A stretch of 64,000 nt of DNA from Candidatus Latescibacterota bacterium. GTDB lineage: Bacteria > Latescibacterota > UBA2968 > UBA8231. Every line of letters begins with the position of its first letter. Within the stretch, counting starts at the first letter, position 1. The stretch spans positions 2,592,001 to 2,656,000 of the forward strand of contig OZ241889.1 in the NCBI GenBank assembly GCA_965203355.1. The letters are read 5' to 3'. Of this stretch, positions 49,700 to 63,773 are shown piece by piece. The notes beneath the pieces are model-generated. The model saw nothing but the letters and a program-made list of their open reading frames with translations. It was not told the origin of the DNA and searched no databases. Position numbers and translations under genes: made by a program.

Positions 49700-50242
49700 C
49701 TAGTATAAAGCTCCATACTGACGCAACATCTTCGTCATCTTGCTGTTGTACCTCGCGGAGCGTAACGGCGTTCCGCCGTGGTTGGCTCTGGCGTTTGGGT
49801 CTGCGCCATGCTCAAGCAACATCTTTGCGGTCTTGATGGCTTTAACCACTATTGCGGTGTATAACGGCGTCCAGCCGTCGTCGTTTTTGGCGTTTGGGTC
49901 TGCGCCATGCTCAAGCAACACCTTCGCGGTCTTGGTGGCGTTCTCAAGTGCTGCGTAGTGTAACGGCGTCCGGCCGTCGTCGGCTGTGGCGTTTACGTCT
50001 GCGTCATGCTCAAGCAACACCTTCGCGGTCTTGATGGCGTTGTTCACTGCTGCCCGGTGTAATGGCGTTATGCCGTTGTTGGTTTGAGCGTTTGGGTCTG
50101 CTCCAAATACAAGCAAGACCTTCGCGGTTGTGCTGGCGTCGTTCTCTGCTGCCCGGTGTAACCGTGTCTTGCCGTCGTTGTCTTGGGCGTTACATCCTAT
50201 GCTTCCGACAATCAACGTTGCGATTAGTAGGCTTCTGCTCAT
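49700..50242 (-). CDS. Ankyrin-repeat lipoprotein
   Basis: SIGC lipobox; about 5 repeats of G.TPLH.AA...KTAKVLLEHGADPNA (99-bp DNA period); AAGGAG RBS. Confidence 0.92.
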   Translation of the reverse strand: MSRSLLIATLIVGSIGCNAQDNDGKTRLHRAAENDASTTAKVLLVFGADPNAQTNNGITPLHRAAVNNAIKTAKVLLEHDADVNATADDGRTPLHYAALENATKTAKVLLEHGADPNAKNDDGWTPLYTAIVVKAIKTAKMLLEHGADPNARANHGGTPLRSARYNSKMTKMLRQYGALY

Positions 50243-53990: not shown

Positions 53991-54848
53991 TTAAGGCCCG
54001 GTGTGCGCCGCCATGCCATGTCCGTGGACGGCACTGGATTCAACGTAGGACAGGGCATAGGCGAGGCCGATCCCCACGAGGAGGGAGCCGATCAGTTTGC
54101 CGCGATCGTGGCTGTGGAAGTGGATCTCCGGCAGCAGGTCGCTCAAGGCAATGCACAAGAACGCGCCCGCTGCAAAAGACAGCACATAGCCGATTGGCGC
54201 CGCTTGTTCTGAGCCAAGCCATTCCACCCCCCCAAAGCTCGCTACGGCCACCATAGGGCACAGGATGGCAAAGCCAACATTGGCCCAGGCCCGGGTGCGC
54301 TGACTGTGCCCGGCGGACTTCATTATGCCAATAATGGAGTACGCATCGAGCGGCTTGTGCAGCAGAATGGCGAGGAACACCCCGAGTCCCGCCAGGGCGA
54401 CTCCCTCTTGATGCGGCGGCTCCATCCGCATGCTGGCGCCCAGCGCGATTCCTTCGGTCGCGGTGTGTATCCCTAGGCCGAGGGCCACGCCGAACAAGCT
54501 CCGCGCATGGCCGCCGCGGTCGTGATCATCGTACAGATCGCGTGCCTCGCGGCTGAAATCGTGCCGATGAAAGTGAAAGATGCGTAGCAAGAAAATCATC
54601 AGCACCATGCCCAACACCATCCAGCCCACGGCTTTTGCTACAATGTCAGATCCAGCCATGTGATTGAGGCTGTGGGGTAAAAGGTGAAACATGGCGATGC
54701 CGAGGATGAAGCCGGCCACGAGACTCATCGCGATCTGGGTACGCGTATGCGTCATGGTGCCCAAAGCCGCCAGCTTCCCGCCGAGCAAGGAAGCGGCAAA
54801 GATGGCGGCTGAGTAGGCCGACAAAACCAGGAGCGCGTTGGCATCCAT
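53991..54848 (-). CDS. ZIP family metal transporter
   Basis: HLLPH, HFHRH, H...EG.ALG, LHKPLD and DLLPE motifs. Confidence 0.9.
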   Translation of the reverse strand: MDANALLVLSAYSAAIFAASLLGGKLAALGTMTHTRTQIAMSLVAGFILGIAMFHLLPHSLNHMAGSDIVAKAVGWMVLGMVLMIFLLRIFHFHRHDFSREARDLYDDHDRGGHARSLFGVALGLGIHTATEGIALGASMRMEPPHQEGVALAGLGVFLAILLHKPLDAYSIIGIMKSAGHSQRTRAWANVGFAILCPMVAVASFGGVEWLGSEQAAPIGYVLSFAAGAFLCIALSDLLPEIHFHSHDRGKLIGSLLVGIGLAYALSYVESSAVHGHGMAAHTGP

Positions 54849-55081
54849 GATGGCTATAATCGGAAGCTAGTCGGGTAGTCGGCGGTCGTGATTTTCTGCA
54901 ACATCATTGTTTTTTCCTTGGCGATGTCGAGTTGCGTACTATACTACGCGATCTTGATTAGGTGCCTATACAAAGTCGCGGTTGAACTTAGTACTTGCCA
55001 CTATGGTATTGGGGCTCGCGCTGGCCGACCCCGATCGCCATGTGCTCCCAGCCAGAGATGTAGTACAGGAGGGCAGATAGT

Positions 55082-56113
55082 ATGCGCGTACCCGTAGAAT
55101 TAAACGAAAAAAAGAGGCTTCAGGAAGCTACCGCCATCATCGCTGTCGGTGGGCTCACAAACGGCATACTGGGCATCGCGAAAGTCGTCCTTGGCAGTGT
55201 TGCCGGGTACCTCCCGCTGACTGCTTCAGGAGTTCACTCGCTGTCGGACATTGTATCCGATGTGGTCGCTTGGGTCGCCGTGCGGATGGGAGCGCAGTCT
55301 GAGAGACAAGGGGAAGACGTACGGTTCCACTACGGCCGCCGACGCATCGAAACCCTACTAGCACTTTTTGCCGCATTTCTGCTCGTATATGTGAGTGTGG
55401 AACTGATTATGGGAGCTTTCGGCCATAGCGAGCACGGTCATGGGATGTCCCCAGCCCTTGTGGAAGAAGTGGCAACCCATGGAATAGATGACCACGACTA
55501 TGGGCACTCCCCAGAGGAGACCGCAGGGGGCTTAGGTCATTTGCTCTTGCTCGTTGGCGGAGCGAGCCTCATTTCAGTGTTTGCCAAGGAAGTACTTTTC
55601 CGCGTGACTCGGCACAAGGGAATACGCCTGAATAGTCCCATGCTGATTGCGAAAGCATGGCATCATCGGGCCGATTCCATCAGTGCGCTAGCCGTCCTGC
55701 TGAGCCTTTTTATTTTCGCCTATTTTCCGACGCTCTCGTTGATCAATCCGATTACCACGGTCATAATCGCGGGTCTGATTTTGCATAGTGCTTGGGAAGT
55801 TGGGGGCAACGCGGTCAAAGAGTTGATAGACTTCGCGCCCTCGCTAGAGACCATAGCTCTAATTGAAGAGATGGCAGAAGAGGTAGAAGGCGTAACATTT
55901 ACGCACAATATTCGCATCCGGTCCATGGGAGGGGCTTTGTATGTTGAACTGACGGCGGAAATCGATCCAACGCTCACAGTGGCCGAAGGGTACGCGGTTG
56001 TTAAACAGATCCGCGAAAAAATAATGGATAAAGTGTCCAATGTGATCGACGTCACCACCCAGCTAACGCCGAAAGGCGAGTACATCCGTCAGTTTTTGGG
56101 GTCAGAAACGTGA
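55082..56113 (+). CDS. Cation diffusion facilitator with His-rich loop
   Basis: HSLSD, HYG..R.E and WHHRAD motifs; C-terminal dimerisation domain. Confidence 0.9.
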   Translation: MRVPVELNEKKRLQEATAIIAVGGLTNGILGIAKVVLGSVAGYLPLTASGVHSLSDIVSDVVAWVAVRMGAQSERQGEDVRFHYGRRRIETLLALFAAFLLVYVSVELIMGAFGHSEHGHGMSPALVEEVATHGIDDHDYGHSPEETAGGLGHLLLLVGGASLISVFAKEVLFRVTRHKGIRLNSPMLIAKAWHHRADSISALAVLLSLFIFAYFPTLSLINPITTVIIAGLILHSAWEVGGNAVKELIDFAPSLETIALIEEMAEEVEGVTFTHNIRIRSMGGALYVELTAEIDPTLTVAEGYAVVKQIREKIMDKVSNVIDVTTQLTPKGEYIRQFLGSET

Positions 56114-56120
56114 ATGCGAG

Positions 56121-57368
56121 TCAGGTGCTTCCAGCCCTATCGCCCGTGCTGGACCGGCCACGAAGATTGAGTAGCATATCTTCGTAGCCACGGCGCAGCG
56201 CACCGGCTTGGAAGCGCCAGATGATCAGGGCGATGAGGAGCAAAGCACTGCCCCATTGCAGGAGCTGAATGGCCGGTGCATGGGCGGTGTCGAGGTGCGC
56301 GGAAATCGCCAGACCAGCGGCGAAAAGCAGCGCATCAATGGCAATGCCGAGAACGACTGTAACCGCAATGACGGTGGCCACGTAGATGGATGCGAAGCGG
56401 GCGCCAAACTGGCTGGCGATGATGGCGATGGCGCCGGTGTTGGTAGCCGGTCCAGTCATGAGGAAAATCAGGGCCGCGCCGGGACTGACCCCTTTGGCGA
56501 CTAACGCGGCGGCGATTGGAGTACTGGCGGAGGCGCAGATATAGAGCGGAATGCCGATCAGCACCATGATCGGATAGGACAGCCAGCGGGCATACTCGTT
56601 TGCCATCAGGTCGCTCGGAATCGCCAGAAAGAGTACGCCCCCCAGCACGACCCCCACTAGCAGGGCAAAGAGAATGTCGTCGGCTATCTCAATGAAGCCA
56701 TAGCGCAAGATATGCTTGACCAGCTTTTTGAAGTCGAGTGCTCGATCGTCGGTGGGAACGGCTGCCGCAGAAGAACCACTGGTGGATTGCCTGCCAACAA
56801 TTTCCTGCAACCAATGGACTAGTAAAACCTTCAGTTGCGCGGGACTGACATAGCAATCATCCCGGTCCGCTCTGAGGGATTGGTGCGCGCCATGATCGTG
56901 CTCACAGTCGCGGCAACTCGCCTGGGCTTTGTCGCGGTCGTCTCTTATGAGGCCGATGCAAAAGAGGCCGGCGACGACTGCCGTGATGAAGCTGATGAAG
57001 GGCCGAACAAGGGCCACGATGGGTCCGAAAAAGGCGTTAGTGACTAAAATCGAATCCGCCCCGGTCTCTGGCGCGGTGATCAGGAAGGACATGCAGGACG
57101 AACGGGACGCCCCCTTATTGCGCAGCTCGGCCACCACCGGCACGACCGAACAACTGCACAGCGGCACGGGTACGCCGATGGCCGAACTCACGGTGACGGA
57201 TTTTAGGCTGTCGTCGCGGAGCCAGCGGAGTATGGCTGGGCGGGAAATGAATACGTGGATCAGGCCGGAGAGCAACAGCCCGAGCAACAGCATGGGCGCT
57301 AGCAATAAGAAGGAGGACCAGAGGAAGGCAAAAAAACTAGCTAATATCCCAAAAAGTTCAAAGGCCAT
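56121..57368 (-). CDS. DUF318/ArsP-type permease (putative metal efflux)
   Basis: PLCSCSV, PETG.DS, YICASASTP and GPATN motifs; CxxC/His loop. Confidence 0.88.
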   Translation of the reverse strand: MAFELFGILASFFAFLWSSFLLLAPMLLLGLLLSGLIHVFISRPAILRWLRDDSLKSVTVSSAIGVPVPLCSCSVVPVVAELRNKGASRSSCMSFLITAPETGADSILVTNAFFGPIVALVRPFISFITAVVAGLFCIGLIRDDRDKAQASCRDCEHDHGAHQSLRADRDDCYVSPAQLKVLLVHWLQEIVGRQSTSGSSAAAVPTDDRALDFKKLVKHILRYGFIEIADDILFALLVGVVLGGVLFLAIPSDLMANEYARWLSYPIMVLIGIPLYICASASTPIAAALVAKGVSPGAALIFLMTGPATNTGAIAIIASQFGARFASIYVATVIAVTVVLGIAIDALLFAAGLAISAHLDTAHAPAIQLLQWGSALLLIALIIWRFQAGALRRGYEDMLLNLRGRSSTGDRAGST

Positions 57369-57424
57369 TGTGATAAGAAGCAAACATGGCCTAGCAAGGG
57401 CAAGCCTCCGATCTGGAGGTGGAG

Positions 57425-57453
57425 TTGCGTTTTTTGTTTCGGACTCCTACAAT
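57425..57453 (+). promoter_or_regulatory. Sigma70-like promoter giving a near-leaderless mRNA
   Basis: TTGCGT-N17-TACAAT; ATG only 8 nt downstream; no SD. Confidence 0.6.
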
Positions 57454-57461
57454 AAAAAGCT

Positions 57462-57776
57462 ATGCTAACGCGCCAAAAGGACATTTCGACGGGCTCGGTC
57501 GCCTCGTTGGCTTTGCTCGTGCTGACGGTGCTCTTTGCGGTTATAATCGGCGGCTTACCCTTCAGCCACCAGCTTTTCCACGAGAGCCTCGTCGAGCCTG
57601 AGCACTGTCTGTCCTGTCTGTTGCAGAGCGGCCTATCGCTCTTTTTTGGCAGCTTGGCTCTCGCACTCGCAGGACTGAATGCCCCTGAGTTAAGCCGGCC
57701 CGCGCCGCGCCCCGTACCGTTTCCCCTTTTTTCTCCGCGCTTTACCCATCTCAACCGCGGCCCGCCCGGGTGCTAG
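57462..57776 (+). CDS. DUF2946/CruR-like leader protein (TM helix, His/CxxC, C-terminal RGPP)
   Basis: TM helix, H...H...HCLSC, Pro-rich linker, NRGPPGC*. Confidence 0.75.
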   Translation: MLTRQKDISTGSVASLALLVLTVLFAVIIGGLPFSHQLFHESLVEPEHCLSCLLQSGLSLFFGSLALALAGLNAPELSRPAPRPVPFPLFSPRFTHLNRGPPGC

Positions 57777-57892
57777 TGCATCCACGCAAGAAGCAGCCTT
57801 AGTGCGTGGGTGCCGCTCTCCAGATTCAATTCGCGTACCACTAAACGCCCGTCTTGTGTGCATAGACGGTCAAACCATTGGAGACTAGCACC

Positions 57893-58411
57893 ATGTTCAA
57901 AAAAAGTATGTCTGCGCTGAGCATTTTCGCCTTGGCCCTCTTTATTGCCAGTTGCGGCGATGACGATAATCCGGTCCAGTCGGATCCACACGACGAAGAG
58001 CACTCCGATGCCGTCGGTCTGATCGTGCGCGATAGCGGCGCTGAGATCGTGCGCGTTGAAAAGGGTGAGGTGACCGGCGAGATCGAGGTCGGCCACGGCA
58101 AGGAAACCGCCCTGCTTACCGTGCGCTTTATCGCCGAAGACGGCGACCTCTTCACGCCGGACGAAGACGAAGGCTACGCGCTCGACTGGGAAGTTGCCGA
58201 CGAGAACATCGCCGAAGTCGAGCATCATGCCGAGGACGGCGCGTGGGCTTTTCACATCATCGGCTTAGCGGAAGGCCACACTACCATCCGCATCAAGATC
58301 AACCACGAAAACCACGCTGATTTCGTCTCGCCGGAAATCGAGATCCACGTCAGCGAGGACGGGCCCGGTGAGGAGCACGACGAGCACGATGAGCACGACG
58401 AGGAAGAGTAA
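57893..58411 (+). CDS. His/acidic-rich lipoprotein with Ig-like domain
   Basis: IASC lipobox; HDEEH, EHH and H.NH.DF; (EHD)n tail. Confidence 0.85.
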   Translation: MFKKSMSALSIFALALFIASCGDDDNPVQSDPHDEEHSDAVGLIVRDSGAEIVRVEKGEVTGEIEVGHGKETALLTVRFIAEDGDLFTPDEDEGYALDWEVADENIAEVEHHAEDGAWAFHIIGLAEGHTTIRIKINHENHADFVSPEIEIHVSEDGPGEEHDEHDEHDEEE

Positions 58412-58437
58412 AGCGGTTAGAGCCGCTGCGATTCTTC

Positions 58438-60735
58438 ATGGGTAAAGTGACGCGGGACCGGACGCAAGCCTCCGGTCCTGCGCCTTTATGTCAAGGTCAA
58501 TTGGACTGCCGACGTAGTATCTGGCCTCGGCTGCTTTTGCGGCTCGCCCTCGTACTCAGCCTAGCCGTAGGTCCCGTTTGGGGCGATCAGACCGGTGCGC
58601 TCGCTGGCCACGTGATCGACGCCGAAAGCGGCGAACCCGTCGGTTGGACTACCGTCGTCATTGAGGGGCTGGAACGAGCGCGGATGAGCGACGCCGAAGG
58701 GTACTTCTTTTTTGCCAACGTACCGCCCGGTGAGCATGTCTTGCAAAGCCTACACGTCGGCTACCCCGAGGCCCGCTTTAAGGTGGAAGTCGTCGCCGGA
58801 GATACCGTCCACGTCGATCTGGTTATCGGCCACGAGGCCCTGCGCGTAGCGGAGATTCTCGTCGAGTGCGAACACGCGAATCCTGTTTCGCCACTCCAAA
58901 CCCCCGAAGTCGTCTTCAGCGGTAGCAAGCTGCGGCAGAGCTTGAGCCGCACGATTGCCGAGACCATTGACTACGAGCCGGGCATTGCCCAGCGCTCGAT
59001 GGGCCCCGCGCCCGCGCGTCCGGTGCTGCGCGGGCTAAGTGGCGACCGCTTATTGGTGATTGAAGACGGCGAGCGCACCGGCGATTTGTCCGGCACTTCC
59101 TCGGACCACGCCGTGGCTATCGAGCCGATGACCACGGAGCGCATTGAGATCGTGCGCGGCCCCCGCACCTTGCTCTATGGCTCCAATGCCTTGGCCGGGG
59201 TCGTCAACGTGGTGCGCGGATACGTGCCCTCTGTGCGGCCCGACGGCTTGGGCGGATCGGTGACCTATCAAGGGGAAAGCGTCAACCGAGGCTGGTCCGG
59301 CGGCTTGGCTCTCGAACAAGCGCTCGGCCCGCTGGCCCTGCGCTTCGATAGCAGCCTGCGCCAGGCCGACGACATTGCCACGCCGCATGGAGTACTCGCC
59401 AATACCGACATCCGCACGGGCAATGCCTCGGTCGGCCTGAGTCTGGTGCGCTCTTGGGGGCACGTAGGGGCGTCCGGCAGCCTGTACAACTCCGACTACG
59501 GCATTCCGCCCGACCCAGCAGGTGGCCATCCGCACGGCGTCTCCATCGATCTCCAGCGCCAACACCTCGAAGGGCGCGGCGAAATCATCACCGGGCCAGA
59601 TTGGCTCCAGCGCTTGGAGTTGCACCATTCGTTTTCGCGCTATCAGCACGGCGAATTCGAAGCCAGTGGCGACTTGGGGATGGAGTTTGGCGTACTCACG
59701 CACCACAGCGGTGCGCTGGCTCACCTAGATCGCATCGGGCCTTTTGCAAATGGTGCGGTTGGCTTGTGGTACGAGTACCGCAATTATGCTGCGGCCGGGC
59801 TCAACTTCACGCCGCCGGCCGAGGAATACGCCGGTGCGCTGTTCGCGTATCAAGAGTGGGAATATGGGCCTTGGGCGGCCAATGCGGCTTGGCGCGTTGA
59901 TGCCCGCCGCGTCGAGCCGCGAGAAGCGCGCGCATCGCGCACAGTCGGCCGCATTGAGACGCGCGACTTTGCCGGTATGTCGGCCGGTTTGTCCAATCAC
60001 TATCGCGCCAACTCGACCTTGACGCTGGGCACGACCTTGATGCGCACCTTTCGCGCGCCCGGCATTGAAGAGCTGTTCTCCGAAGGGCCGCATTTGGCCG
60101 CCTATTCGTACGAGGTGGGCGATGGAGCACTCGGCAGCGAGCGCGGCTTAGGATTGGAGCTGTTTGTCGACTACCACCTAGCAGAAGGCCATGTACACTT
60201 GGCCGTCTTCCGCAATGCGATTGACGGGTTCATTTTTCCCAAAAACACCGGTGAGCGCAGTCGGCGGCGCGATGATCTCTTTGTCTACCAGACCCAGGGA
60301 GCGCGCGTCCGCATGTATGGCGCCGAAGCCAACTTTGATTGGCATCTGGCCGAGCCTTGGAAAATGGCTGGCGCCCTCAGCTATGTGCGCGGCCACCTCA
60401 TGGACCGCGCCGACGAACCCCTGCCTCGTCTGCCGCCCCTGCAAGGGTATCTGGGCCTGACTTGCGAACCCACTGAGGTGCTGAGTGCGACCCTTGGTCT
60501 GCGCGTGGCGGCGGCTCAGAATCAGATCGGCGAGTTTGAAGAGCCTACCGAGGGCTACGTGGTGCTGGATCTTTCGAGCCAATACTACGCGCAATGGGGT
60601 GGGCGTCTGCACACCTTCGCCTTGACGCTGGAAAACGCCACGGACGCGGTGTACCGCAATCACCTCAACCGCGTCAAAGAGATTCTGCCCGAACCAGGCC
60701 GCAATCTGCGTCTGCTGCACAAGATATTTTTCTGA
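58438..60735 (+). CDS. TonB-dependent receptor (ZnuD-like metal type)
   Basis: RPVLRGL, SDHAV, RGPRTLLYG, ELFSEGPH and Y.NHL...PGRN motifs; terminal F. Confidence 0.92.
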   Translation: MGKVTRDRTQASGPAPLCQGQLDCRRSIWPRLLLRLALVLSLAVGPVWGDQTGALAGHVIDAESGEPVGWTTVVIEGLERARMSDAEGYFFFANVPPGEHVLQSLHVGYPEARFKVEVVAGDTVHVDLVIGHEALRVAEILVECEHANPVSPLQTPEVVFSGSKLRQSLSRTIAETIDYEPGIAQRSMGPAPARPVLRGLSGDRLLVIEDGERTGDLSGTSSDHAVAIEPMTTERIEIVRGPRTLLYGSNALAGVVNVVRGYVPSVRPDGLGGSVTYQGESVNRGWSGGLALEQALGPLALRFDSSLRQADDIATPHGVLANTDIRTGNASVGLSLVRSWGHVGASGSLYNSDYGIPPDPAGGHPHGVSIDLQRQHLEGRGEIITGPDWLQRLELHHSFSRYQHGEFEASGDLGMEFGVLTHHSGALAHLDRIGPFANGAVGLWYEYRNYAAAGLNFTPPAEEYAGALFAYQEWEYGPWAANAAWRVDARRVEPREARASRTVGRIETRDFAGMSAGLSNHYRANSTLTLGTTLMRTFRAPGIEELFSEGPHLAAYSYEVGDGALGSERGLGLELFVDYHLAEGHVHLAVFRNAIDGFIFPKNTGERSRRRDDLFVYQTQGARVRMYGAEANFDWHLAEPWKMAGALSYVRGHLMDRADEPLPRLPPLQGYLGLTCEPTEVLSATLGLRVAAAQNQIGEFEEPTEGYVVLDLSSQYYAQWGGRLHTFALTLENATDAVYRNHLNRVKEILPEPGRNLRLLHKIFF

Positions 60736-62270: not shown

Positions 62271-63773
62271 CTACGTATCCAATTCGGCGATTTCGCGCAG
62301 TAATTCATTTTTTCTTTTTTTTTTAAAATCGTACATGCTGTGAGTTCCTTTCTTGCGATTGCATTCCGAGCACAGCAATTGCAGGTTCGCCAATTCGTTG
62401 CCACCCCCTTTACTTTTGGGCTTTATATGATCGACCTCCAACAAGCCATACTCTAAAAAACGACGACAAAAGGCACAATTACCACGCTGCTTACCAAACA
62501 GGTACTCTTTATTGAACATGCAATTGTACGGACGCTCCGACTCGGGCTTGGAGGCATCCAATAGCTCTTGCTCTTCTTCAGGGGAAAGGTCCGTCCGTTT
62601 ATGGACATTCTCCGAGTGTACCACATTGTAGAACAATTGGAATGTCTGGTACAGACGCGATTTTACCAATTCAGCCGCCAACGGCGATAAATCTACACCG
62701 GCCCACTGACGATTTAACTTCTCGGCCGCTACACAAGCCGTCGCACAGCCGCAAAATGGATCAAACACTAGGTCATCTGGATTACTGCTCGCCTTAATAA
62801 TGCGTTCCAACAGAGCCAATGGCTTCTGCGTCGGATATCCTAAACGCTCCTTTGCCTGTGCTGACAACGGCGGTATATCTAATACCATACCTGTCATAGC
62901 CGCCCCAGGCGATGTGCTCAGATAGCGTTTGAAGCCGGGGACGCCATTCGCTCTGCTCGGCCAGTGAATCAACCCGGCGGCATCGAGAAAATCCAATTTT
63001 TCTCGCGTTTTCATGGCATCCCAATTCGCAGGTTTCTCTACGTGATCGGGAAACGTGCCCGGACTTCCCCAATGCCTGCCCTTAGCTGTTACATCAATGC
63101 CCCGCCAAGGTTGCCCGGAGTCGCCGGTTCGTACCTCCGCTGCCGTGAGATCGCCTACTCGATACCTACCGTGCTCGTCCTCGTAGCGATAGAACTTTTG
63201 GATGTATTCAGGGTCGTGATCTCCATATACGAGATTAAACGTATTTTTATCGCTGGCCACATAGAACAAGAGCACATCGTGGACGACCGCGAATTTGCGA
63301 CTACCTGATTTCGAGGAGGTCCGTTTCCACACGATTTCATTGCGAAAATTATCTCGGCCAAACACCGCATCCATCACCAACTTCAGATAATGACTTGCGG
63401 TCGGATCGCAGTGTAGGTAAATAGAGCCGGTGTTCTTGAGAATGCGGCGCATCTCCAGCAGCCGCACGGCCATCATCGTCAGATACGACTGCATCCCTTC
63501 GCCATGAGCATACCGGGCCGTGTCGATCACGCGATACAGGGCTGGAGCTTTATGCGCGATCTTGCCATGCCACGACACGTCCAGATCAGATAACGTCCAC
63601 GTATCCTTGAAGGCTGCACCGGCTGCCGCACTACCTATCGGTGCGCTATACGTGCGATTGGAATTGAACGGAGGGTCTAGGTAGATCAAATCTACGCTCG
63701 ACGAGTTCATACCCCGCATAATATCGAGGTTGTCGCCCGTCCACAGCGTCCGATTCTGCCAATTTGCTGTCAT
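62271..63773 (-). CDS. N6/N4 DNA methyltransferase fused to a C-terminal HNH nuclease
   Basis: YLDPPF, YPTQKP and DPFCGCAT; CAFC...VDHIKP..GG.N...NLQLLC..CN. Confidence 0.9.
   Translation of the reverse strand: MTANWQNRTLWTGDNLDIMRGMNSSSVDLIYLDPPFNSNRTYSAPIGSAAAGAAFKDTWTLSDLDVSWHGKIAHKAPALYRVIDTARYAHGEGMQSYLTMMAVRLLEMRRILKNTGSIYLHCDPTASHYLKLVMDAVFGRDNFRNEIVWKRTSSKSGSRKFAVVHDVLLFYVASDKNTFNLVYGDHDPEYIQKFYRYEDEHGRYRVGDLTAAEVRTGDSGQPWRGIDVTAKGRHWGSPGTFPDHVEKPANWDAMKTREKLDFLDAAGLIHWPSRANGVPGFKRYLSTSPGAAMTGMVLDIPPLSAQAKERLGYPTQKPLALLERIIKASSNPDDLVFDPFCGCATACVAAEKLNRQWAGVDLSPLAAELVKSRLYQTFQLFYNVVHSENVHKRTDLSPEEEQELLDASKPESERPYNCMFNKEYLFGKQRGNCAFCRRFLEYGLLEVDHIKPKSKGGGNELANLQLLCSECNRKKGTHSMYDFKKKRKNELLREIAELDT

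Follow-up and report, generated by a model that had tools for sequence, protein, structure and literature searches.

RAPP and RGPP arrest peptides reportedly include ApdA, ApdP and ApcA, together with a Streptomyces set, from the work of Fujiwara et al. As these are described, they resemble the leader reported here in being small membrane or secreted proteins that have a C-terminal RAPP or RGPP core and whose gene lies 5′ of the regulated one. The characterised ones, in the published accounts, monitor Sec/YidC or unknown cues, whereas the present family carries a metal-type loop in a metal-transport context. RGPP and RAPP are described as robust arrest cores, under-represented in proteomes and over-represented towards the C-termini of small exported proteins encoded 5′ of TonB receptors, and in the accompanying survey TonB-dependent receptors figure as one of the downstream gene types enriched across Gram-negative phyla (PMC12992588). 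The main text of that survey does not name this leader family, as the terms 'Latescibacter', 'Gemmatimonad', 'zinc' and 'lipoprotein' occur 0 times each. CruR (Bp2923) of Bordetella pertussis is the DUF2946 prototype (Roy et al. 2022, PMC9426467); its motifs lie 45 residues apart, a spacing which is kept within 1–2 residues in >2000 proteins and matters for regulation (PMC9426467), and its arrest was shown in vitro with the third and fourth RAPP codons in the P and A sites (PMC12992588). The other relevant system is CutF from Rhodobacter capsulatus, similarly an exported metal-sensing nascent peptide, where a C-terminal proline stall lets the ribosome undo the mRNA structure shielding the next RBS, and for which the authors also report CutF-like clusters whose motifs contain only His and which have TonB neighbours (Ozturk et al., bioRxiv 10.1101/2022.11.11.516240 and 10.1101/2025.02.05.636593).

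Here we examined a 64,000-nt window from a Candidatus Latescibacterota genome, in which a small ORF precedes a lipoprotein gene and a TonB receptor gene (all coordinates refer to the window and all features are on its + strand). We consider it fairly probable that this ORF acts in cis as a regulatory leader of the CruR/CutF type, at which arrest on RGPP would open the initiation region of the lipoprotein gene and a metal would set the arrest. A first-pass annotation, made from the letters alone, had proposed a translational attenuator equivalent to CruR in a distant lineage. Its coordinates for the promoter-like element, the ORF, the stem, TCTCCA, TGGAGA and the second hairpin were all verified on the sequence. 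The idea itself was partly supported: the leader-type gene, the operon and the pairings stood, while the CxxC sensor, the Pfam threshold and the geometry of the mechanism did not.

The leader ORF (57462–57776) encodes 104 amino acids, in the order first hydrophobic helix, His/Glu/Cys loop, second helix, Pro-rich tail and C-terminal RGPPGC, and it ends with TAG, which is the leader stop in 28 of 29 copies. Homologues fell in 82 protein clusters, rising to 148 once a profile was used, and the leader was found at 24 loci in MAGs of Latescibacterota/"Gemmatimonadetes"; judged by its sequence conservation, it is a real, conserved gene. Synonymous variation in the leader is low throughout. Tandem duplicate leaders exist, each copy having its own version of the same intergenic structure. 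A promoter-like element (57425–57453) consists of TTGCGT (57425–57430), a 17-nt spacer and TACAAT (57448–57453), the last with an 8-nt gap to the leader ATG at 57462, which would imply a leaderless or near-leaderless mRNA. It had been annotated as a promoter; a consensus scan of 57200–58600 called 0 sigma-70-like sites, since TTGCGT agrees with TTGACA at only 3 of 6 positions. On the other hand, GTTGCGTT-N-TAnAAT-N8-ATG recurs 5′ of the leader in most of 38 aligned copies (2 diverge), and it is this conservation that supports a candidate promoter.

Two hydrophobic helices are predicted in the peptide, rather than the single transmembrane helix noticed at first. Codons 13–32 (57498–57557) would form a membrane anchor or export signal, with a Kyte-Doolittle (KD) 19-residue mean peaking at 2.67 over residues 13–31, and codons 53–72 (57618–57677) a moderately hydrophobic helix, with a peak of 1.76 over residues 52–70, which ends 30 residues before Pro102. 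The AF2 model, of low confidence (pLDDT 66), places helices at residues 10–39 and 50–72 and predicts the C-terminal 32 residues to be disordered. Between the helices lies a putative metal-sensing loop (codons 36–52, 57567–57617) with the pattern H36-x3-H40-E41-x3-E45-x3-C49-x2-C52, in which H48 precedes C49-L-S-C52. In 16 sequences, down to 33% identity, H36, E45 and C49 are invariant and H40 nearly so, as are, without exception, R99, P101 and P102 of the arrest motif. Position 52 is Cys in just 41 of the 118 parsed relatives, being otherwise Y (45), H (17), R (9), G (3), A (2) or L (1). Thus, the CxxC first taken for the sensor is not what is conserved; from the alignment, the putative sensor is H36/H40/E45/C49 between two hydrophobic helices.

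The arrest motif, R99 G100 P101 P102, is encoded by the codons CGC GGC CCG CCC (57756–57767). Among the 118 parsed relatives, the motif is RGPP in 86, RAPP in 31 and RPPP in 1. These 118 came from 129 relatives; of the remaining 11, 4 were truncated or frameshifted and 7 had both motifs outside the parsing pattern. R-x-P-P stands 2 residues from the C-terminus in 114 of the 118, and the distance from the Cys motif (Cxx[X]) to the Arg of R-x-P-P is 46 residues in 108. By analogy with the CruR toeprint (PMC12992588), the expected arrest places P101 and P102 in the P and A sites, respectively.

The layout resembles that of CruR. Both genes, as far as CruR is described, are the small first gene of a TonB-receptor operon and have an N-terminal membrane or export segment, a Cys metal motif 45–46 residues ahead of an R-x-P-P that is itself 2–3 residues from the stop, a Pro-rich, C>G-skewed tail and a long intergenic region, along with a weak, co-linear HMM match. 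DUF2946 is the top Pfam match of the leader, but at 14.8 bits it falls under the 23.7 cut-off. The model matched 16 of 27 family members at E≤1 (best 5.3e-05), and in 3 of 5 related genomes the leader was its best six-frame match; among 9 distant leader relatives, only 1 was matched, at E 0.74. Unlike CruR, the leader mostly has RGPP instead of RAPP, one conserved Cys plus His/His/Glu, and a second hydrophobic helix after the motif, while the next gene encodes a His-rich lipoprotein and the receptor is ZnuD-like, not copper-type. CutF differs, in the description available, in its CxxxC, its EF-P-sensitive PPP and its cleavable signal peptide, and its target is a detoxifying multicopper oxidase, whereas the leader has RGPP and a helical hairpin and precedes an uptake operon.

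The order leader, lipoprotein, TonB receptor was present in all 24 loci. In the lipoprotein (57893–58411, 172 aa), a lipobox (ASC-GDDD) is accompanied by a beta-sandwich of the Ig/Big_2-like kind and by a C-terminal tail rich in His and acidic residues (His/Asp/Glu); His112, His121, His138 and His141 are invariant. Its homologues fell in 139 clusters, 119 of the 120 matches listed had no Pfam domain, and its predicted structure (pLDDT 82.9) gave generic Ig-like matches. Between the lipoprotein and receptor genes there is a GC-rich 12-bp hairpin (58451–58482), perhaps a weak terminator-like or stabiliser element, which was seen by eye in 6 other loci (L005, L007, L008, L012, L015 and L023) among 14 regions inspected; a similar hairpin was also seen by eye 5′ of second leaders. 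The receptor (58501–60735) has CarboxypepD_reg, Plug and barrel domains (Pfam), and its start is likely TTG 58501, although the longest ORF begins at ATG 58438 and runs through the hairpin.

The closest solved relative of the receptor is ZnuD of Neisseria meningitidis (PDB 4rdr; E 1.2e-33, 119.8 bits, best stretch residues 157–358), followed by an unnamed TonB-linked receptor and OprC, each at about 1e-13. NCBIfam ZnuD is also its best NCBIfam model, at 174.9 bits vs an equivalog cut-off of 950, so it is not a ZnuD orthologue by the NCBIfam rule; it differs from ZnuD in its N-terminal CarboxypepD_reg, typical of FCB-group receptors. ZnuD is regulated by Zur at transcription. The neighbouring genes encode ZIP, CDF and SO_0444-type Cu/Zn permease transporters, and ZIP and/or SO_0444 permease were also found in 15 of 24 loci. 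Zinc or nickel had been suggested at first; zinc is a reasonable guess, because of the ZnuD relationship, these neighbours and the four invariant His and His/Asp/Glu tail of the lipoprotein, and judged from this context the sensed metal is probably zinc.

The same genes bear on whether the arrest, as with MifM, SecM or ApdA/ApdP, monitors membrane insertion capacity (Sec/YidC) instead of metal, with pulling by the second helix freeing the ribosome. Force-profile studies indicate that an inserting helix 30 residues away can pull on an arrested chain, which is the distance from the end of the second helix to Pro102, and the hydrophobicity of this helix is marginal. However, lipoprotein and TonB receptor genes lie downstream rather than genes for Sec/YidC components, and the invariant His/Glu/Cys loop and the metal-transporter neighbourhood would be left without a role; we regard this explanation as very improbable.

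The intergenic region between leader and lipoprotein gene is 116 nt here, 106–164 nt in 31 of the 35 measurable copies and longer in 4. The stem, the anti-SD:SD pairing and the hairpin noticed initially all appeared in the MFE and centroid folds of 57774–57900 (−41.7 kcal/mol, z −2.98; matched by 1 of 200 shuffles). When the fold was extended to 57740–57900, it reached −55.9 kcal/mol (z −3.57; matched by 0 of 200 shuffles), and all 14 nt of 57879–57892 were paired in the free RNA. Two strands flanking a hairpin contribute to this clamp. Strand 1, GGUGCUAGU (57769–57777), covers the last two codons, the stop codon and 1 nt more, and pairs with 57884–57892; strand 2 is the anti-SD TCTCCA (57817–57822), which pairs with TGGAGA (57879–57884). 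The hairpin, HP1 (57778–57813), has an 11-bp stem with arms 57778–57788 and 57803–57813, and a second hairpin, HP2 (57849–57869), lies inside the clamp loop and is longer in relatives. The lipoprotein initiation region (57879–57895), made of TGGAGA as SD, the spacer CTAGCACC and ATG, is almost invariant across 28 copies.

The pairings are also conserved in the related loci, in sequences that are closely related (mean column identity of the intergenic region 65–68%). The clamp helix, with 8 pairs counted (GGUGCUAG with CUAGCACC), had 98.2% of cells paired and 1 of 8 pairs with a compensatory change (U-A to C-G in L024); HP1 had 92.4% paired and 3 of 11 pairs changed on both sides; and HP2, over 13 aligned pairs, had 89.7% paired and 5 of 13 changed on both sides. 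The 6 pairs of the anti-SD helix were paired in 100% of cells with 0 of 6 double changes, and as 5 of the 6 are invariant, covariation cannot be judged for this helix. Thus, compensatory changes were seen in 3 of 4 helices, although they amount to few events (several in L024 alone) and many pairs never vary, because the sequences are closely related. The whole-structure covariation score was reached by 0 of 500 shuffles, and registers slid by 1–3 columns left only 28–54% of cells paired. The features exceed what chance would give, the 24 related loci sharing the ORF, the placement of its motifs and the RNA elements.

The 3′ edge of a ribosome lies at about +16 from the P site. From the arrested P site this is 57777, so an arrested ribosome would exactly hide clamp strand 1, HP1 beginning 1 nt further on. 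The mechanism sketched in the first-pass annotation, with TCTCCA pairing to the next RBS, does not follow from this geometry, as TCTCCA sits 55 nt 3′ of the arrested P site, too far for the stalled ribosome to reach, and GGAG stays paired in every modelled state. The strand that an arrested ribosome would cover is the last 9 nt of the leader, predicted to pair with the SD–AUG spacer, which that reading had not included. The predicted cost of opening SD..AUG+10 had medians, over 28 copies, of 13.5 kcal/mol for free RNA, 7.9 with an arrested ribosome and 9.3 with a ribosome at the stop codon; the arrested value was below the free one by at least 2 kcal/mol in 26 of 28 copies, but below the at-stop one by that much in only 10 of 28. 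The SD–AUG spacer had a predicted median unpaired probability of 0.00 in free vs 0.77 in arrested RNA (n=27), while that of GGAG was no higher than 0.2 in 26 (free), 27 (arrested) and 25 (at-stop) of 27 copies. Because GGAG is paired with the anti-SD in all modelled states, the predicted opening is only partial. The 3′ arm of HP1 (GCGUGGGUGC) can form an alternative helix with GCACCAUGU of the start-codon region, in which 99.2% of cells are paired. Re-clamping of the start codon by this arm after the ribosome moves on is weakly supported, as no pair of the helix changes on both sides and the arrested cost lies at least 2 kcal/mol below the at-stop one in only 10 of 28 copies.

In the mechanism we propose, the peptide would be inserted co-translationally as a two-helix hairpin, so that a short outward-facing loop presents His36, His40, Glu45 and Cys49, and the ribosome would arrest at R99-G100-P101-P102. 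In free mRNA the initiation region UGGAGACUAGCACC would be kept fully paired by the two strands flanking HP1, namely the end of the leader with its stop codon and the anti-SD CUCCA (57818–57822). An arrested ribosome, halting 1 nt before HP1, would hide the first strand and leave only the 5–6 bp anti-SD helix, and the predicted opening cost would drop by about 5–6 kcal/mol, by which translation of the lipoprotein and then of the ZnuD-like receptor would be switched on. Re-use of the leader's own last codons in a 14-nt clamp of the initiation region sets this locus apart from CruR, whose described output is Rho-dependent termination (PMC9426467).

The leader could instead encode a stable two-helix membrane subunit, e.g. 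a partner or chaperone that binds metal for the uptake system, with RGPP merely slowing translation and the RNA acting as constitutive damping or coupling without metal control. The conservation of the loop and of both helices is what a functional protein would show, the leader varies at the amino-acid level next to neighbouring genes at 80–90% identity, and the SD stays paired in all modelled states. Yet the R-x-P-P set, the 2-residue tail and the 46-residue spacing suit an arrest peptide and would not be needed in a structural protein, the last 32 residues are predicted to be disordered, pairing with the initiation region of the next gene constrains the stop codon and the codons before it, and every leader copy, tandem duplicates included, has its own intergenic structure. 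Such a subunit therefore seems improbable.

A CruR-type output, where the arrested ribosome is mainly a Rho roadblock and the clamp only keeps the region ribosome-free, is possible but rather unlikely as the main explanation. After ribosome release, Rho loaded on the C-rich, G-poor tail would terminate in the intergenic region or early lipoprotein gene. A C>G bubble (57690–57767) spans the coding sequence of the Pro-rich tail as far as the arrest codons; its C minus G is +29.5% over 78 nt, the 99.5th percentile of 14,337 sense-strand windows, and a maximum of 24–33% occurs at or near the same place (leader nt 218–257) in all 34 homologous leaders. The first 45 nt past HP1 hold 14–19 C vs 3–9 G in 28 copies, all 5 related genomes checked encode Rho, and the 116-nt intergenic region resembles the 162 nt of CruR, where the bubble, from uORF tail into intergenic region, serves as the rut region and copper control is lost with bicyclomycin (PMC9426467). 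The C richness, however, may merely reflect the CCN codons of the tail, and Rho alone leaves unexplained the precise 14-nt complementarity, the covariation and the fixed 1-nt gap from ribosome edge to HP1. As bubble and Rho are both present, Rho may contribute by acting on the leader tail, and the roadblock may coexist with the translational clamp.

In the arrest-and-clamp mechanism, how long the arrest lasts would depend on metal bound by the H/E/C loop of the nascent chain, which would stand 46 residues ahead of the RGPP Arg, the end of the second helix being 30 residues from the peptidyl-transferase centre; folding or insertion at the latter distance could pull on the nascent chain. Since the genes controlled are for uptake, metal (most likely Zn) would be expected to end the arrest and so turn the operon off. 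CutF has the opposite polarity, as copper induces the stall there; the one suggested here is read from gene context. Control by stalling leaders is already known for copper in proteobacteria; unlike Bordetella with its CruR, the lineage here is Latescibacterota, and the leader most likely switches on its lipoprotein and receptor by stalling.

The leader ORF (57462–57776, + strand) encodes a 104-aa protein with RGPPGC as its C-terminus. A word-indexed search with this protein brought up 221 candidates, of which 82 leader clusters had E ≤ 0.01; these are about 104 aa long throughout and come from MAGs labelled Gemmatimonadota or Latescibacterota. An exhaustive representative search at 50% identity yielded 8 clusters at E ≤ 0.001. 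The profile built from close and distant members matched 148 clusters, of which the best 120 all lacked a precomputed Pfam domain. Scanning of species-representative genomes gave 24 leader loci (designated here by numbers with the prefix L), and in all 5 complete related genomes the leader gene was confined to this locus, with 1–2 copies each and 8 matches in total. The leader was absent from the titles and abstracts of the papers listed for Latescibacter and TonB, and the literature on CruR and arrest yielded no further system.

In a set of 16 sequences with identities as low as 33%, residues M1, P33, H36, E45, C49, L60, R99, P101 and P102 were invariant and H40 was nearly so. The motif survey of the family examined 129 proteins, 118 of which were parsed for both motifs; 4 of the other 11 were truncated or frameshifted, and 7 had both motifs yet escaped the regular expression. 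The first-pass annotation had asked for a test of whether RGPP and CxxC are conserved. For the former, an arrest core R[G/A/P]PP was present in 118/118 parsed leaders (RGPP in 86, RAPP in 31 and RPPP in 1). In 114/118 the PP is followed by exactly 2 residues up to the C-terminus, in agreement with the C-terminal RAPP, about 3 residues from the end, by which leaders of the DUF2946 family are recognized. The CxxC sensor, on the other hand, did not hold. The window has C49-L-S-C52, of which C49 is invariant; the second-Cys position, however, was C in only 41/118 parsed leaders, with Y in 45, H in 17, R in 9, G in 3, A in 2 and L in 1; CxxC is therefore not a conserved feature of this family, although a conserved CXXC is expected of members of the known class. 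Judging from the conserved residues, we consider H-x3-H-x4-E-x3-C the candidate metal-sensor motif. Its distance from the arrest core is nearly fixed, with 46 intervening residues from Cxx[X] to the Arg in 108/118 parsed leaders (range 44–48). Synonymous variation was low throughout the leader and was not lower at its 3′ end (mean entropy 0.53 bits in codons 86–104 vs 0.48–0.54 elsewhere).

Leaders of this kind are not new. In the CruR leader of Bordetella pertussis, according to Roy et al. (PMC9426467), 45 residues lie between CXXC and RAPP, a distance that over 2000 proteins keep to within 1–2 residues and that copper control requires, and RAPP is three residues from the C-terminus; once copper is sensed, the RAPP arrest is relieved and Rho can terminate transcription ahead of bfrG, the gene of a TonB receptor (PMC9426467). 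For CutF, known from Rhodobacter capsulatus, an earlier preprint distinguished 29 sequence clusters, in some of which the motif contains His only, and counted TonB-like genes among the usual neighbours (bioRxiv 10.1101/2022.11.11.516240). Fujiwara et al. reported that RAPP and RGPP are robust arrest cores and under-represented in proteomes, and that small uORFs with RAPP or RGPP are found before TonB-dependent receptors throughout Gram-negative phyla; in vitro, CruR arrested with the P site on the third motif codon and the A site on the fourth (PMC12992588). In view of these three reports, the class of RAPP/RGPP leaders is an established one, whose breadth has already been charted in silico. 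The words zinc, Latescibacter, Gemmatimonad and lipoprotein have no occurrence in the main text of PMC12992588, the figures and supplements of which may list the leader family.

CruR belongs with DUF2946 (Pfam PF11162), with which a search of our ORF had been suggested. DUF2946 was the top Pfam match of the leader, at which residues 42–102 aligned with model positions 57–117 of 117 (the last 61 positions), but the score of 14.8 bits (E 0.051) was under the gathering threshold of 23.7 bits. DUF2946 matched 16/27 leader relatives at E ≤ 1 (best E 5.3e-05), and the leader was the best six-frame match in 3/5 related genomes (20.1, 18.6 and 18.3 bits), with 0/5 over the cut-off; the same six-frame search also gave matches at E ≤ 1 in 9/14 control genomes. 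Membership in DUF2946 was rejected, since the scores were below threshold in the window and in the 5 related genomes and only 1 of 9 distant relatives matched, at E 0.74. The DUF2946 design rule of about 45 residues (± 1–2) between the motifs is nevertheless followed by the leader family, with 46 residues between the motifs and 2 after the PP here, compared with 45 and 3 in CruR. Based on the protein sequences, the family is treated as divergent from or convergent with DUF2946, and as probably working like one.

The leader had been described with one TM helix. The hydrophobic N-terminal segment is indeed present, but Kyte–Doolittle (KD) averages over 19 residues revealed two hydrophobic segments, with means of 2.67 (residues 13–31) and 1.76 (residues 52–70). 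AlphaFold2 with the family alignment placed helices at 10–39 and 50–72 and a disordered tail at 73–104, at low confidence (pLDDT 66). The first segment would provide another property of the known leaders, a signal peptide at the N-terminus or a TM segment of N-in/C-out orientation. Since R4 and K6 precede the first helix and several Arg follow helix 2, the leader is most simply read as an N-in/C-in hairpin whose H/E/C loop presumably faces outward. Helix 2 ends 30 residues before Pro102 and so would be leaving the ribosome at arrest.

The leader is followed by genes for a lipoprotein (57893–58411, + strand) and a TonB receptor (58501–60735, + strand), and this order was found in the window and in all 24 loci where the locus was long enough. 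The leader to lipoprotein gap is 116 nt in the window, 106–164 nt in 31/35 measurable copies and 233–272 nt in the other four. The leader therefore stands where leaders of the known class stand, as first gene of a same-strand metal-homeostasis operon and before a long intergenic region. In 13/24 loci (L003, L005, L006, L007, L009, L011, L012, L013, L015, L017, L019, L020 and L021) there are tandem double modules before one receptor, as in L005:5001–9334, in the order leader A, lipoprotein A, leader B, lipoprotein B and receptor; the exception is L009, with its second leader immediately before the receptor. Leader A is mostly of the type HQLF...CPAY, and leader B of the type HQLC...CPAC, often with inserted HES or HGS repeats; the single leader of the window is of a mixed type, HQLF...CLSC. 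Perhaps the two types could serve two thresholds or two metals.

The lipoprotein family comprises 139 clusters, and 119 of the best 120 of these lack a Pfam domain. Its model is a confident beta-sandwich (pLDDT 82.9), for which the fold search returned generic Ig-like/Big_2-like neighbours only and nothing metal-specific; the protein atlas likewise places it in clusters without a name, where Big_2 scored 0.83. Residues H112, H121, H138, H141, D115, D143 and W118 are invariant, and the protein has an acidic His-rich tail. Between the lipoprotein and receptor genes (58412–58500), a conserved GC-rich 12-bp hairpin was identified at 58451–58482. A hairpin of this type, with its flanking sequence, also precedes the second leader in tandem loci. 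The start of the receptor is probably TTG 58501, which yields the signal peptide MDCRRSIWPRLLLRLALVLSLAVGPVWG, so the ORF start at ATG 58438 is likely too long.

The leader operon adjoins a metal-transporter cluster (53991–57383), which consists of a ZIP transporter (53991–54848, − strand), a CDF exporter with a His-rich loop (55082–56113, + strand) and a divergent SO_0444-type Cu/Zn permease (56121–57383, − strand; 323.2 bits, over the 300-bit cut-off). ZIP and/or the SO_0444 permease were also present in 15/24 loci, and seven loci have a second SO_0444-type permease 3′ of the receptor on the same strand, which could provide the inner-membrane step. Among solved structures, ZnuD is the closest to the receptor (E 1.2e-33); an unnamed TonB-linked receptor and OprC come next, at about 1e-13 each, so that ZnuD leads by 20 orders of magnitude in E-value. 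Sensing of Zn or Ni and a ZnuD-like receptor had been suggested for this operon. Given ZnuD as the closest solved receptor and the ZIP, CDF and SO_0444 neighbours, zinc is our best guess for the metal. Against NCBIfam ZnuD (NF038289) the receptor scored 174.9 bits, far under the curated cut-off of 950 bits. Elsewhere in the window, and unrelated to the leader operon, are a 180-aa all-ankyrin-repeat protein (49700–50242, − strand) and a DNA methylase (N6_N4_Mtase) that carries an HNH nuclease domain at its C-terminus as a fusion (62271–63773, − strand).

The promoter-like element reported before the ORF is present on the + strand at 57425–57453, with TTGCGT at 57425–57430, a 17-nt spacer and TACAAT at 57448–57453, 8 nt before the ATG at 57462. 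The consensus promoter scan called no sigma-70-like site in 57200–58600, because the −35 hexamer agrees with the consensus at only 3/6 positions. The pattern GTTGCGTT...TAnAAT-N8-ATG is repeated 5′ of most of 38 aligned leader copies, with two copies diverging, and each leader copy has its own conserved promoter-like element. A usable SD was absent before the leader ATG in the window and at the homologous sites. With only 8 nt between the −10 element and the ATG, the leader mRNA is probably leaderless or nearly so.

Downstream of the leader, the stem, the TCTCCA/TGGAGA pairing and the second hairpin of the first-pass annotation were all recovered. HP1 pairs 57778–57788 with 57803–57813, the anti-SD TCTCCA (57817–57822) pairs with the SD TGGAGA (57879–57884), and HP2 (57849–57869) lies between anti-SD and SD, with the lipoprotein ATG at 57893; all are on the + strand. 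Both the MFE and the centroid structures of 57774–57900 gave these pairs (−41.7 kcal/mol, z −2.98, 1/200 shuffles as good). The fold of 57740–57900, which had been called for, gave −55.9 kcal/mol (z −3.57, 0/200 shuffles as good) and contained, besides the anti-SD:SD helix, a further strand made of the leader's last nucleotides, here called the clamp strand. In its MFE and centroid folds, the whole 14-nt stretch that begins with the SD and reaches up to the AUG (57879–57892) is predicted to be paired, its partners being 57769–57777 and 57818–57822, which flank HP1.

Applied to the intergenic region alone, RNAalifold recovered neither HP1 nor HP2 and joined the start codon to the HP1 3′ arm, and the HP2 sub-alignment gave a poor consensus; hence the helices were defined by hand and their pairs counted in A5, an alignment of 28 intergenic copies. 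The clamp helix, between the last 8 nt of the leader, GGUGCUAG, and the spacer CUAGCACC, has 8 pairs with 98.2% of cells paired and 1 double change (U-A to C-G, in L024). For HP1 (11 pairs) 92.4% of cells were paired and 3 pairs had changed on both sides, for HP2 (13 pairs) the values were 89.7% and 5 pairs, and the anti-SD:SD helix (6 pairs) was 100% paired with 0 double changes and 5 pairs that never vary. The whole structure had 94.0% of cells paired vs 28–54% when the partners were slid by 1–3 columns, and its covariation score was reached by 0/500 shuffles, where the aligned sequences are close relatives and the covariation rests on few independent events. An alternative helix could form between the HP1 3′ arm and GCACCAUGU at the start codon, for which 99.2% of cells were paired and no pair had changed on both sides. 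The leader stop is TAG in 28/29 distinct copies, at 57774–57776 in the window, a near-constancy explained by the pairing of TAG with CUA of the downstream spacer. Rfam gave 0 matches at E ≤ 1 in 57300–58500; therefore, no known riboswitch explains this region.

An arrested ribosome covers the mRNA to about +16 from the P site, the toeprint distance. With the Pro101 codon (57762–57764) as the expected P site, the clamp strand 57769–57777 falls at +8 to +16, and +16 is 57777, the last base of the clamp strand and one base before HP1 (57778). The spacing from the arrest codon to HP1 is free of indels in 27/28 copies, the exception being L008. In L008, the closest relative among the genomes searched, the sequence that follows the RGPP codons (L008:5296–5330) differs by 2 nt, which changes the reading frame, so that its leader ORF ends RGPPALVHPRW at a TAA within the loop of HP1; the variant may be genuine, or may stem from a homopolymer error, the MAG being a long-read one. 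The mechanism first proposed relied on the anti-SD, but 57817–57822 lies outside the footprint of the arrested ribosome, and the clamp strand, which lies within it, had gone unnoticed. Two features of CutF/SecM-type control are thus found in prediction, namely an mRNA structure shielding the downstream RBS (57879–57892) and a stalled footprint, of textbook size, that overlaps one strand of the structure (57769–57777).

Three ribosome states were modelled for the 28 copies, with the cost of opening SD to AUG+10 as the measure. The median cost was 13.5 kcal/mol for free RNA, 7.9 kcal/mol with the arrested ribosome and 9.3 kcal/mol with a ribosome at the stop codon (n = 28 each). Arrest lowered the cost by at least 2 kcal/mol relative to free RNA in 26/28 copies, but relative to a ribosome at the stop codon in only 10/28. 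The median unpaired probability of the SD–AUG spacer rose from 0.00 in free RNA to 0.77 on arrest, while GGAG stayed paired to the anti-SD in nearly all copies and all modelled states (unpaired probability ≤ 0.2 in 26/27 free RNAs). Since the spacer opens while GGAG remains paired, arrest is predicted by these models to loosen the start site without fully freeing it. The HP1 3′ arm might re-clamp the start site after the ribosome moves on, a tentative step in view of the 10/28 copies.

Rho-dependent polarity could render the start-site decision irreversible, and ranks as a rival of the clamp or as an addition to it. A C>G bubble of 78 nt (57690–57767) has C minus G of +29.5%, which ranks at the 99.5th percentile when compared with 14,337 sense-strand windows taken from 12 of the window's genes, and in 34/34 homologous leaders a C–G maximum of 24–33% occurs at or near the same place (nt 218–257 of the leader; nt 226–230 in 26 of them). 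It matches the rut region of CruR as described in PMC9426467. Rho itself was over the cut-off in 5/5 related genomes, so both elements of CruR-type control, a C>G bubble in the uORF tail or intergenic region and an encoded Rho, were found, the latter in the relatives. The bubble may, however, be a by-product of Pro codons.

The observation of the first-pass annotation is confirmed, and its interpretation as a metal-sensing arrest leader is partly supported, by the motif, the spacing, the operon and the RNA pairings, and corrected as regards CxxC, DUF2946 and the reach of the anti-SD. From its sequence features, the locus is best described as a variant, in Latescibacterota, of the CruR/CutF kind of metal-sensing arrest leader. 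It keeps the R-x-P-P position and the 45–46-residue spacing of CruR, and differs from CruR and CutF in its His/His/Glu/Cys sensor motif, its probable zinc context and its specific, predicted RNA read-out. The full combination of parts would go further, and we hold it unlikely to be correct in its entirety: a nascent-chain switch for zinc, not copper, would be built on a two-helix hairpin with a periplasmic H-x3-H-x4-E-x3-C loop, metal would alter the pull of helix-2 insertion on the RGPP-arrested ribosome, and a three-strand RNA device (stop-codon region and anti-SD as clamp, HP1 as the spare strand) would be opened only by an RGPP-halted and not by a passing ribosome, with the tandem paralogues (CxxY, and CxxC with HES repeats) setting two thresholds or serving two metals.

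To our knowledge, experiments have shown metal-sensing arrest peptides in two proteobacteria only, with CruR and CutF, and in both cases the metal is copper. The main value of the present locus is its well-resolved anatomy, and it adds a well-conserved and unannotated family from an uncultured phylum of the FCB group. For annotation, it means that leaders and lipoproteins of this family now stand as "hypothetical" and that the leaders are missed by the Pfam DUF2946 model. If arrest and zinc control are true, post-transcriptional sensing by a nascent chain would extend to a second metal, and the locus would offer a compact model for turning the position of a parked ribosome into access to a start site.
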